Source of the DNA: Candidatus Baldrarchaeota archaeon
GTDB taxonomy: Archaea > Asgardarchaeota > Baldrarchaeia > Baldrarchaeales > DXJG01
Reading direction: 5' to 3'
Length of the DNA stretch: 32,000 nt
NCBI GenBank assembly: GCA_019056805.1
Contig: DXJG01000001.1
Coordinates: 60,001 to 92,000 of the forward strand
Position numbers and translations under genes: made by a program. This document shows, one piece after another, positions 1,406-4,661 of this stretch; the stretch's first letter is position 1, and each line of letters opens with the position of its first letter. The notes under the pieces were generated by a model. That model was not told where the DNA came from. It saw only the letters and a program-made list of their open reading frames with translations, and made no database searches.

Positions 1406-1442
1406 CCCTTATTTCGTGTGGAGTATTGTTGGGGGTTTGGGA

Positions 1443-2684
1443 GTGTCAAAAGAAAAGCCACTAGACAGCATATTTAAGCGTTTTCTGACTGCACCAAAGA
1501 TATTTAAAAATAGAGATGTTCTTAGACCGACCTATGTGCCAGATGAGCTTCCTCACAGGGAAAAACAAATAGCAAAGGTCGGTATGATTCTTGCATCTGC
1601 TCTTAGAGGGGGAACGCCTTCTAATATTTTTCTTTACGGCAAAACTGGCACTGGTAAAACCGTTGTTGCTCAATACGTTTTAAAGCATTTAAAAGAAAAA
1701 TGTATAGAGTTCGAAGTCCCCGTACCTATTACCTCTTACGTTAATTGTCGCATCGTTGATACTAGCTATCGTGTTTTAGCTCACTTATGTAACGATGTTG
1801 GTGTTAGTGTTCCCATTACAGGTTTGCCAACTGACACAGTTTATGATAAGTTTAGAAGGGGCCTAGATTCTAAAGGTCAACTTATGATTATTGTTTTAGA
1901 CGAAATAGATCAACTTGTTAGAAAAAATCGTGAGAGCGCGAACGATGTACTTTACGATTTAACGAGAATCAATTCGAGCTTAGAGAATTCTAAAGTAAGT
2001 ATTATTGGCATCTCTAACGATTTAAAATTTAAAGATCACCTAGATCCTAGGGTTATTAGTAGTTTAAGCGAGGAAGAAGTAGTTTTTCCACCTTATACCG
2101 CTGATGAACTTAAAGATATCCTCATTCAAAGAGCAAATATGGGATTTAACGATGGGGTTTTGGAGTACGGTGTAATAAATTTATGTGCTGCTTTTGCTGC
2201 TAGAGAACATGGAGATGCTAGAAGAGCGTTAGATCTTCTTCGTGTTGCAGGTGAAATCGCTGAAAGGGAAGGATCAAATAAGGTGACCGAGGAACATGTT
2301 AGATTAGCTCAGAGGGAAATAGAGAAGGATACCGTAAGTGAAGTTCTTGAAACTTTACCTATTCAATCAAAGCTTGTTCTTTATAGCATCTTTCTACTGG
2401 AAAAACATAGAGTATCTGAGATAAATACTGGAGATGTTTATGCTGTGTATCAAGATTTATGTAGGTATCTCAAAATGGACAGTCTTACTCAACGAAGAGT
2501 CAGTGATATAATAAATGAATTAGATATGTTGGGTCTTGTTTATGCTAGAGTTATTAGTAGAGGAAGATATGGTAGAACTAAACGGATTAAAATAGGGGTC
2601 CCCTTAAATCTTATCGGCGATGTTTTAGAGAAGGATCCACGTATTAAAGGAATATCTGGTTATGTACCACGAACTACTCAGTAA
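1443..2684 (+). CDS. cdc6: Orc1/Cdc6 replication initiator
   Basis: Walker A GKTGTGKT, Walker B IIVLDEID, sensor GDARRALDLLR, C-terminal wHTH with SRGRYGRTKRI. ORF track starts at 1416; GTG at 1443 (MSKEKPL) is the more likely start. Confidence 0.97.
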   Translation: MSKEKPLDSIFKRFLTAPKIFKNRDVLRPTYVPDELPHREKQIAKVGMILASALRGGTPSNIFLYGKTGTGKTVVAQYVLKHLKEKCIEFEVPVPITSYVNCRIVDTSYRVLAHLCNDVGVSVPITGLPTDTVYDKFRRGLDSKGQLMIIVLDEIDQLVRKNRESANDVLYDLTRINSSLENSKVSIIGISNDLKFKDHLDPRVISSLSEEEVVFPPYTADELKDILIQRANMGFNDGVLEYGVINLCAAFAAREHGDARRALDLLRVAGEIAEREGSNKVTEEHVRLAQREIEKDTVSEVLETLPIQSKLVLYSIFLLEKHRVSEINTGDVYAVYQDLCRYLKMDSLTQRRVSDIINELDMLGLVYARVISRGRYGRTKRIKIGVPLNLIGDVLEKDPRIKGISGYVPRTTQ

Positions 2685-4053
2685 AATTTAGAATTTTTAC
2701 CTCAAATGTCCTTAAATTTATTATTGGAACTTGACAATACTGTGATGTTTCAGATATTTCTTTTCTGTTGGCTATCCATGTTCCAGAGGAGATTATATGT
2801 ACGCCCTGATATTCGCCATGAAGTGTAAGGTGAAAGTGACCTAGGTGAAGTATATCGGGTACGGTACTTATTGCAAGTAAGTCTCCTGGATGAGGTATTA
2901 TGGGAATTGACCCGTAACATGGACAGAGATGCCGTGATTTTAATAGAAATTTCGCTAATTCAAGAGGATTTTCTGCACTAATTTCTTCAGCTAACTTTTC
3001 CATGTGTAACCCGTGAAACATTAAGATAGATGCATTATGAATTTTTACTAAGGCAGGGTTACCTAAGATTTTTACATTGGACATTTCAACGAGTTTTTCT
3101 GTGTTTTTAGTTATTGGTGGTTGGGGAAGCATTGGTAAGGTTGCATCATTTTCCCCAGGGATCATAATGATCTCTATGCTCTTCGAGATTTCCTTTAAAT
3201 AGGTGTATAGTGTGTCGTAGTTTTCTTCTTCTTTTGGATCGTTAATTAGATCTCCAGCAACTAGTAGATATTTTATCTTTTCTTTTCCTTTAGTTTTGAG
3301 CCAGTTTACAAATTTTTTAAAACCTTTTTCTTGGAACTCGGAATGTCCTATATGTAAATCCGATATAAATGCAGCATATATATCTATTTCAGCTTTCTTC
3401 GGTTCATGTGCTGGAACTATATCGGGTAAAGCCAGTGTTTTTGCTTCTATAGTTCGATTTTCATCTAGGGATCCTTCTATGAAAATTACTTGATCAGACA
3501 TGTACCTTCTTGCTTCATTAAAGAGTTGAGGATTTTTTCTTGAAATTTTAACACTTATCACTCCTGTTTCATCTTCAACTACGAATTTTAAATCGTTATT
3601 CTCACTTTTTTCAAAAATCATTCCGATGAGTTTTACATTTTCGCCAGGTTTCCCTCTTTGAAGAATATTTTCAATGGTTTGGTAAGTATATCTCTGTTCC
3701 AAAATTCTCTTTAATTTTTGATATTTGTCTCGAAAATAATTCACCAAAATATCCTTTGTAATTTGCAACGATATTTGGGTTGAAGGAGAACTTATAATTT
3801 CCATTTTAGCTGGAATATTTTCTGCACTTACTTTAGTTTCTTTTTTAACTTCAAAAATGTCTTTTACGAATTGAGGAGTTATGACTAGTAGATCCTCTTT
3901 TTTCTTCGCAGTAGCAAGAATTTTATCTAAGTAAGTGTTAAGTTGCTGATCTTCCAATGAAGACAAATATTCTAGAGCTTCCGGTGATATTTGATATCCT
4001 TCTTCAACAATTCGTTGAACTATTTTTTCCTTTTTTTCTTCCATTTTATTCAT
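2674..4053 (-). CDS. polB: DNA polymerase D small subunit (DP1) homolog with degenerate exonuclease motifs
   Basis: DP1 architecture: N-terminal helical domain, OB fold (VVEDETGVI), phosphoesterase motifs SDLHIG, GDLIND, PGENDA, FHG, RHLCP, GHFH. Confidence 0.88.
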   Translation of the reverse strand: MNKMEEKKEKIVQRIVEEGYQISPEALEYLSSLEDQQLNTYLDKILATAKKKEDLLVITPQFVKDIFEVKKETKVSAENIPAKMEIISSPSTQISLQITKDILVNYFRDKYQKLKRILEQRYTYQTIENILQRGKPGENVKLIGMIFEKSENNDLKFVVEDETGVISVKISRKNPQLFNEARRYMSDQVIFIEGSLDENRTIEAKTLALPDIVPAHEPKKAEIDIYAAFISDLHIGHSEFQEKGFKKFVNWLKTKGKEKIKYLLVAGDLINDPKEEENYDTLYTYLKEISKSIEIIMIPGENDATLPMLPQPPITKNTEKLVEMSNVKILGNPALVKIHNASILMFHGLHMEKLAEEISAENPLELAKFLLKSRHLCPCYGSIPIIPHPGDLLAISTVPDILHLGHFHLTLHGEYQGVHIISSGTWIANRKEISETSQYCQVPIINLRTFEVKILNFTE

Positions 4054-4661
4054 CCTTCTATGTTAACTGGACGAGGTATTATTATGTAGCCTTCCTTCTC
4101 GTTACCCACTTTGATAGTCTTTCCATCAAGATGTAGTTTAGCCGTAAGAGCAGCTATTACAGCATCAAGTTCATGTATAGTTATCTTATCTTTTCCTATA
4201 TCTCCTTTTAATCCGAGTTTTATAAGAGCACGTCTAATCTGCTCCACATCTTTCATAACAGGTAGTCCTAAAGCCTTTCTACTTGAAGTAGGGTGAACCT
4301 CAATAACTCGTATACCATTTTCTCGCATTTTTGAAGCTAAACGGATTCCCCTTAGAGTAAGATTTTTCATTCCGGGGAATAGTGGTGGTAAAACAGAATA
4401 TCCAAGCCTTTTCATTTCCTTATCCGCCAATCGCATTTTTCCATCTTTTGGCATGGTTAACGGTGCATCTATTGCTACAAGTAGGGGATTTGATTCCAAG
4501 GTTTTTCTCAATATCTCATCATCTGAATGAAAAGTTAAAATTTCAACTTTAAAATCTTGAAGTAAAGCCCATCCGGTTTCTTTGCTCTCTGTTCCAGCTA
4601 AATCGATTCCTACAACTCTGTAACCCCTACTTGTATATTCGGGCACTTTCTTTTCCCTCAT
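4050..4661 (-). CDS. DUF429-type predicted nuclease (RNase H fold)
   Basis: VVGIDLAG, VAIDAPL, IEVHP and HELDAVIAALTA motifs; stop overlaps the DP1 start (ATGA). Confidence 0.85.
   Translation of the reverse strand: MREKKVPEYTSRGYRVVGIDLAGTESKETGWALLQDFKVEILTFHSDDEILRKTLESNPLLVAIDAPLTMPKDGKMRLADKEMKRLGYSVLPPLFPGMKNLTLRGIRLASKMRENGIRVIEVHPTSSRKALGLPVMKDVEQIRRALIKLGLKGDIGKDKITIHELDAVIAALTAKLHLDGKTIKVGNEKEGYIIIPRPVNIEG

Follow-up and report, generated by a model that had tools for sequence, protein, structure and literature searches.

Why does an archaeon keep, beside its replication initiator gene, a small subunit of the DNA polymerase PolD whose exonuclease site departs from the canonical sequence, and which polymerase would such a subunit serve? 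The question is raised by a gene for a homolog of DP1, the PolD small subunit, in a stretch of 32,000 nucleotides of the Candidatus Baldrarchaeota contig DXJG01000001.1 (forward-strand positions 60,001-92,000), hereafter referred to as the window. The answer that we consider very probable is that this protein is the sole DP1 ortholog left after the loss of the PolD catalytic subunit DP2, and that it acts as a non-catalytic B subunit of the Pol delta-like polymerase PolB3. The basis for this view is provided here by sequence states, gene content, synteny and fold, while the contact between DP1 and PolB3's C-terminal domain (CTD) comes from published yeast two-hybrid data. The source genome (G000; 1.92 Mb in 18 contigs) is 91% complete. 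It was compared with four further genomes of the same order, the Baldrarchaeales (G001-G004), one of which, G004, represents a second family (f2) next to that of the source genome (f1); all five genomes of the order are 82-96% complete, one being 96%.

Is the gene truly a DP1? Its product has the expected domain order, as follows.

2674-4053, minus strand: DP1 homolog (P0001), an uninterrupted open reading frame (ORF) of 459 residues, with an N-terminal helical domain, an OB fold and a calcineurin-like phosphodiesterase (PDE) domain
3844-4053, minus strand: N-terminal helical domain, residues 1-70, with helices 3-17, 24-31 and 35-51 in the model (pLDDT 81-91)
3424-3681, minus strand: OB-fold domain, about residues 125-210, with weak OB-fold Pfam matches at 124-207 and model strands at 139-208

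The start of homologs aligns with Met4 (window position 4044). The family PF04042 (DNA_pol_E_B) matches with 66.5 bits against a cut-off of 29.1, and all five NCBIfam models of the 'DNA polymerase II small subunit' match too, each below its own cut-off; the best of them, NF003118, reaches 329.3 bits versus an equivalog cut-off of 445. Among proteins of solved structure, Pyrococcus abyssi DP1 (5ihe) is the closest relative (HMMER E 2e-49). AlphaFold2, run on an alignment of 20 sequences, gives a confident model (mean pLDDT 89.5), and Foldseek places P. abyssi DP1 at the top of its structural matches (TM score 0.74, 30% identity), followed by the eukaryotic B subunits POLD2 (0.60-0.64), POLE2 (0.62) and POLA2 (0.57) at 13-17% identity. 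The N-terminal domain has the GYQISPEAL block in common with ordinary DP1s and, by analogy with Thermococcus DP1's N-terminal domain (DP1N; PMC9023282), may take part in contacts with GINS/CMG. The closest homologs are 83-85% identical, the following ones about 65%, and the next step down is 32%. Those that carry a name, at 65% and 32% identity, are labelled 'Candidatus Baldrarchaeia archaeon', and genus- and order-level relatives have the same locus. In DP1 trees, which were built from archaeal sequences only, DP1s of the order form a single clade (SH-aLRT 99).

Could this DP1 still proofread? P. abyssi DP1 binds its metals through D360, H362, D404, N450, H497, H560 and H562 and depends on H451 as its proton donor (PMC10721889, PMC4996933); the preliminary description of the locus had rightly called this histidine catalytic. 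Residue equivalences were taken from the HMMER alignment of Baldrarchaeal DP1 to 5ihe, and conservation was assessed in two alignments, one of 20 DP1 sequences (A1) and one of DP1s from the order (A2). The site then reads as follows.

3343-3363, minus strand: PDE motif I, SDLHIGH, residues 231-237; ligands D232 and H234 (equivalent to D360 and H362) are kept, and the motif is invariant in A1 (20/20) and A2
3238-3258, minus strand: PDE motif II, AGDLIND, residues 266-272; the bridging ligand D268 (D404) is kept, and D407, the second Asp of P. abyssi GDVVDG, is replaced by N271
3142-3159, minus strand: PDE motif III, PGENDA in place of PGNHDA, residues 299-304; N450 is replaced by E301 and H451 by N302
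Residues 309-313, minus strand: LPQPP
3010-3021, minus strand: PDE motif IV, MFHG, residues 345-348; ligand H347 (H497) is kept
2830-2844, minus strand: PDE motifs V/VI, LGHFH, residues 404-408; ligands H406 and H408 (H560 and H562) are kept

The preliminary description had listed DLH (D232-H234), FHG and GHFH as retained, GDLIND in place of GDxVDG, GEND in place of GNHD, and a missing GIYPGQ loop, and each of these observations was confirmed. Six of the seven P. abyssi ligands are identical; N450 is the exception, with Glu in its place (Asp in some relatives). After motif II, 13 residues are deleted, the gap lying exactly over GIGIYPGQYSDLV of P. abyssi DP1; a Tyr that is among the residues binding the 3′-terminal base (Y415 in PMC4996933) sits in this deleted loop. 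The position of K536 is occupied by S/L/T/I in DP1s of the order, with a one-residue deletion, and the α9 region is shortened. Across the order, motif III takes the form G-[E/D]-[N/A/T/M/S]-D, with N/A/T/M in f1 and S in f2 (GDSD in G004), and the f2 genome has the same deletions as f1. D232, H234, D268, H347, H406 and H408 are invariant between DP1s that are only 31% identical, and the 95 columns invariant across both families include these six ligands and exclude the positions of H451 and D407. Since the six ligands are retained, the metal centre is probably still held. The 3′-5′ exonuclease chemistry, on the other hand, would be gone, judging from the changes in the proton-donor His, in the motif II Asp that partners it, and in the loop and helix holding the 3′-terminal nucleotide.

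The same site may be read differently, namely as that of a working nuclease or phosphoesterase in which another residue or a water molecule serves as the proton donor. Three points weigh against the inactivation that we propose and the view built on it. The ligand positions are conserved over deep divergence, six of the seven being kept and the seventh (N450 to E/D) being a carboxylate able to bind metal; residual or altered hydrolytic activity is therefore possible. In addition, metallophosphoesterases that are active without the motif III His exist, such as YfcE/MJ0936 with GNCD and LpxH with GNRD. The third point concerns gene content, taken up below: the source genome is only 91% complete. 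Nevertheless, an active variant seems very unlikely to us. The position of the His has no conserved substitute (N/A/T/M/S), D407, its Asp partner, is lost as well, and the base-binding Tyr loop, K536 and α9 are deleted or variable. The source genome lacks the KH and zinc domains with which DP2 guides the end of the primer to the DP1 site (PMC10721889), and in P. abyssi the H451A substitution by itself abolishes exonuclease activity (PMC10721889).

How common is the loss of this His among DP1s? We surveyed 201 DP1 representatives, drawn from 1005 hits among 1.84 billion proteins searched, together with prior hits. The His is kept in about 180 of them and is missing in three clades only: the Baldrarchaeales, a clade with a 'Nitrososphaerota' member, and the pair P0103 and P0149. 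Since the loss is confined to these three clades, GEND is, as far as sequence can tell, not a common variant of active DP1, a possibility that the preliminary description had named among those that would undo its case. Glu or Asp occupies the N450 position in all 18 sequences without the His versus 7 of the 183 with it; a carboxylate at this position may stabilise the site after catalysis is lost. Human POLD2 probably has Glu there as well, in PGEFD. A different substitution was seen in f8 Asgard DP1s (L020, L022), which are otherwise ordinary and come from genomes with DP2: these have GGHD for GNHD, the ligand Asn being lost and the His kept.

Which polymerase, then, could this DP1 serve? The preliminary description had left two possibilities, either a paralog serving another polymerase or a PolD lacking DP1 proofreading. 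The source genome encodes one DP1. A search of this genome for a second, intact DP1, as the paralog reading would expect, did not find any, the other matches being a generic metallophosphoesterase of 257 residues on contig 11 (C11; E 2e-3) and a stop-riddled fragment. Nor was DP2 found in the source genome with three models: PF03833 and PF24846 have no match there, and TIGR00354 has a single match, to model positions 1003-1075, which falls within a PolB ORF of contig 17. DP2 was likewise not found in G001-G004, each of which encodes an orthologous PolB-CTD. Such an outcome would also be expected if Baldrarchaeal DP1 were an ordinary PolD small subunit and the DP2 gene lay in an unassembled part of the genome, which is in 18 contigs and 91% complete. 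We regard this as extremely unlikely, given that a DP2 match above the family cut-off occurs in 34 of the 41 Asgard genomes searched and in no genome among the five from the order, that DP2-like sequence is limited to the CTD fused to PolB, and that the lack of DP2 in Baldrarchaeia has been reported independently (PMC12680538). With no DP2 found in any of the five genomes, the idea of a PolD without proofreading has to be abandoned. Of the other possibility, service to a polymerase other than PolD stands, whereas paralogy does not, this being the only DP1 in the genome and, as shown below, one in the ancestral position next to cdc6.

The candidate partner is the PolB with the DP2-like tail.

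Contig 17 (C17) of the source genome, 5181-9209 (L013): PolB3 (P0057), 1342 residues, with Exo I-III and YGDTDS intact and a 157-residue tail (about residues 1186-1342)

The motifs FDIEC, NILNFD, YARKDA and YGDTDS are all intact. The tail contains two Cys4 motifs, CysA (C1222/1225/1239/1242) and CysB (C1274/1277/1290/1293); the CysB half matches the CTD of P. abyssi DP2 (E 1e-7) and aligns closely with the DP2 tail of one Asgard genome (G008). PolBs with zinc-binding tails paired with inactive DP1s were proposed earlier (Kazlauskas et al. 2020, PMC7544198). For Baldrarchaeia, a PolB3 fused to the DP2 CTD, the absence of DP2 and the retention of DP1 have been described by Feng et al. (2025, Nat Ecol Evol, PMC12680538), who call the assembly Pol delta-like and report that DP1 binds the PolB3 CTD in yeast two-hybrid experiments, with support from AlphaFold3 as well. 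An exonuclease-dead, structural B subunit, as had been suggested for this gene at the outset, is supported by our sequence evidence and is in line with this two-hybrid result. The course of events that we propose is that Baldrarchaeia would have lost DP2 and kept the single DP1 ortholog, which would dock onto the two-zinc CTD of PolB3, a domain presumably acquired from DP2. Proofreading would be supplied by the intact DnaQ-type exonuclease of PolB3 itself, leaving DP1 in a putative scaffold or replisome-tethering role. Inactivation of DP1 would be affordable precisely because the CTD-bearing PolB has its own exonuclease, an argument already made in PMC7544198. As a separate observation, motif A of PolB3 is interrupted by a LAGLIDADG intein (between DFR and C at one end and between HN and SLYPS at the other) in G000 and G001, and the intein is absent from G002, G003 and G004 (PolB3 loci L013 and L031-L034).

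Does the position of the gene agree with its being the original DP1 rather than a copy? The surroundings of the gene consist of the following elements.

1416-2684, plus strand: orc1/cdc6 initiator gene (NF001625, 584 bits, cut-off 501), convergent with DP1, the 3′ ends overlapping by 11 nucleotides
746-1415, no strand: intergenic region upstream of cdc6, with a perfect 24-bp palindrome at 765-788
4050-4661, minus strand: DUF429 gene (PF04250, 44 bits), whose stop codon overlaps the DP1 ATG (ATGA)

The neighbourhood of cdc6, which had been recognised before, is not peculiar to this lineage. Each of the 11 other Asgard loci checked has cdc6 and DP1 as a convergent pair, among them loci of families with a normal GNHD DP1 and DP2, and because the pair is common to all of them, it represents the ancestral position of DP1 and identifies the gene as a positional ortholog rather than a paralog. 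The intergenic region upstream of cdc6 is likely a replication origin (oriC), putting DP1 beside the origin; besides the palindrome, it contains CTTCCACTGGAAACAAAGGGG at about 1033-1056, which we take to be an element resembling the origin recognition box (ORB), going by what we assume to be its consensus. The further genes of the window are ordinary chromosomal ones (Hef, a MoxR-VWA pair, a FAU-1-like RNase and an HD protein), and Rfam and ARAGORN scans of the window gave no match.

The two neighbours have diverged to different degrees. Between the two Baldrarchaeal families Cdc6 is 65% identical and DP1 31%, the corresponding values for other Asgard family pairs being 57% and 39%. Taken with the pattern of invariant residues, this indicates that constraint on catalysis has probably been relaxed in Baldrarchaeal DP1, while constraint on the fold and the metal site appears to continue. 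One might go further and see in the faster evolution of DP1 relative to neighbouring Cdc6, and in its score below the NCBIfam equivalog cut-off, the signs of a decaying, functionless relic heading for loss in the wake of DP2. Such a fate is barely credible for a gene whose ORF is uninterrupted in all genomes and metagenome clusters seen, whose product has 95 invariant columns between families of 31% identity and a confident AlphaFold2 model, whose synteny and translational coupling are conserved, and for which binding in the yeast two-hybrid system has been published (PMC12680538).

The translational coupling just mentioned involves the DUF429 gene. DUF429 proteins are placed in the RuvC/YqgF clade and predicted to be RNase H-like nucleases (PMC3985635). 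In G001, G002 and G004 (L014, L015, L019), too, DP1 has this gene directly upstream, and both Baldrarchaeal families thereby show the arrangement; the gene is not a neighbour of DP1 at 8 further Asgard loci, and the coupling is particular to the order. The family as a whole is patchy in Asgard, being found in 9 of the 41 genomes, and no relative of DUF429 with a solved structure was found by sequence.

Is the combination of features restricted to Baldrarchaeales? One of the His-lacking sequences of the survey, P0103, comes from contig CAYWSC010000004.1 (L039), labelled 'Candidatus Hadarchaeota archaeon'. Its genome and the three nearest relatives (G041-G044; 2.4-4.0 Mb, with loci of 51-60% GC; L039, L042, L045-L050) encode a DP1 with GE[C/Q/H/T]D and the same loop and α9 deletions as in Baldrarchaeal DP1, and none of the four was found to have a DP2. 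Their PolB, of about 1020-1040 residues, has a CysA/CysB-like tail and is 35-41% identical to Baldrarchaeal PolB3. Directly upstream of the presumably dead DP1, at the position matching that of the Baldrarchaeal DUF429 gene, all four genomes have a gene for an MJ0936/YfcE-type metallophosphoesterase (165 residues; PF12850, 118 bits).

L039, 1082-1579, plus strand: MJ0936-type gene
L045, 978-1472: MJ0936-type gene
L046, 2919-3410: MJ0936-type gene
L047, 2856-3347: MJ0936-type gene

A single clade of Baldrarchaeal and Hadarchaeota-labelled DP1s was not rejected by the approximately unbiased (AU) test (p 0.64), long branches being involved. Only Baldrarchaeia and Aenigmatarchaeota are named in PMC12680538 as keeping DP1 without DP2, and the Hadarchaeota-labelled clade may therefore be a third such lineage, or else a mislabelled bin.

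The genes upstream of DP1 invite yet another explanation, according to which DP1 has been retooled: with its metal centre and the coupled DUF429 protein, it would recruit or regulate a new nuclease activity at the fork. The overlap of the DUF429 and DP1 genes in both Baldrarchaeal families, absent at DP1 elsewhere in Asgard, would fit this, as would the MJ0936-type phosphoesterase gene at the same upstream position in 4/4 genomes of the second clade with a probably dead DP1, and the conservation of the DP1 metal ligands. We find it quite unlikely nonetheless: the evidence is gene adjacency, proofreading is already provided by PolB3, and the DUF429 and MJ0936-type genes are mutually unrelated. 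In a more general version of this thought, the Pol delta-like holoenzyme would receive a new trans-acting hydrolase through its B subunit, and the module would occur in, or have been passed among, more than the two published lineages; this, too, is tentative and in our estimation unlikely. A non-catalytic B subunit of PolB3 thus continues to be our preferred description of Baldrarchaeal DP1.

How does this subunit compare with systems already known? The Baldrarchaeal Pol delta-like complex of PMC12680538 is from the same lineage and has the same gene set (PolB3 with the DP2 CTD, DP1, no DP2), and the gene studied here is a member of it. There is no difference in kind; the ligand states, the loop deletions and the DUF429 coupling are additions to that work, not corrections of it. 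Its main text does not discuss the phosphodiesterase site of DP1, and the string 'inactiv' is not used there. Three groups of inactive DP1s were described in PMC7544198, Aenigma_GB_GCA_002789635-like, Nitrososphaera-like as well as Heimdall B3/LC3-like, all with a degenerate site and from genomes without an active DP2. Members of the Aenigma group are found together with B6 PolBs bearing zinc-binding tails. The same rationale, that of a PolB doing the proofreading, applies to these DP1s; the 'B6-aenigma2' PolBs of that study were later moved to Baldrarchaeia (PMC12680538). The difference is that Baldrarchaeal DP1s constitute a clade of their own. With canonical DP1 (P. abyssi; 5ihe, 6t8h, 8ppt), Baldrarchaeal DP1 shares the fold, the domain order, six of seven ligands and the position at the side of cdc6, but it differs in having neither the proton-donor His nor D407, the Tyr loop or a DP2 partner, and in scoring below the equivalog cut-off. 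The arrangement itself is thus already known from PMC7544198 (2020) and PMC12680538 (2025), and what may be new are the residue-level anatomy of the site, the DUF429 gene coupled to DP1 and the Hadarchaeota-labelled clade with the same features.

The eukaryotic B subunits POLD2/Pol31, POLE2/Dpb2 and POLA2/Pol12 likewise combine an OB fold with a PDE fold and are bound by the CysA/CysB CTD of a self-proofreading PolB; they are non-catalytic, as Baldrarchaeal DP1 probably is too. Their inactivity, assumed in the preliminary description, is well founded, as they have lost all catalytic residues of DP1 (PMC4996933); Baldrarchaeal DP1, in contrast, keeps six metal ligands. To what extent, then, is the latter eukaryote-like, as had been claimed for it? 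A local similarity does exist: in HMMER, residues 284-379 match POLD2 residues 281-377 with an E-value of 1e-3, the motif III site being covered. However, the LPQPP part of the resemblance to POLD2 is not specific, since LPQP is usual, and indeed the consensus, in ordinary DP1s. A profile of DP1s from the order scores 26 bits with POLD2 and 13 with Pol31; for a profile of ordinary Asgard DP1s, the values are 33 and 27, and 18 for POLA2. Moreover, six DP1 chains outrank POLD2 among solved-structure matches to Baldrarchaeal DP1. The profile scores and the Foldseek ranking rule out that it is more eukaryote-like than other DP1s. The probably dead site and the PolB partner do justify the term, and the six retained ligands and the POLD2 profile score, which is not the higher one, do not. 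Going by these comparisons, Baldrarchaeal DP1 appears eukaryote-like in function and partner, not specially in sequence, and special ancestry with eukaryotic B subunits is unsupported by the profiles; 'intermediate' is the most fitting word for its state. In PMC12680538, DP1 of the Heimdall clan is the one favoured as the relative of eukaryotic B subunits.

It is in this capacity that the gene is of interest. Eukaryotic replicative polymerases consist of a PolB catalytic subunit and an inactive, DP1-derived B subunit joined through a PolD-derived zinc tail, and the same assembly is present in Baldrarchaeia, an archaeal case that attracted notice in 2020 and 2025 for this reason. Baldrarchaeal DP1 would represent a clean intermediate on such a path, one in which catalysis has apparently been lost, the ligands have been kept and the gene is still found beside cdc6 and the likely origin. 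While leaving the published picture unchanged, an intermediate stage of this kind would help to order the steps of the transition from DP1 to a B subunit.

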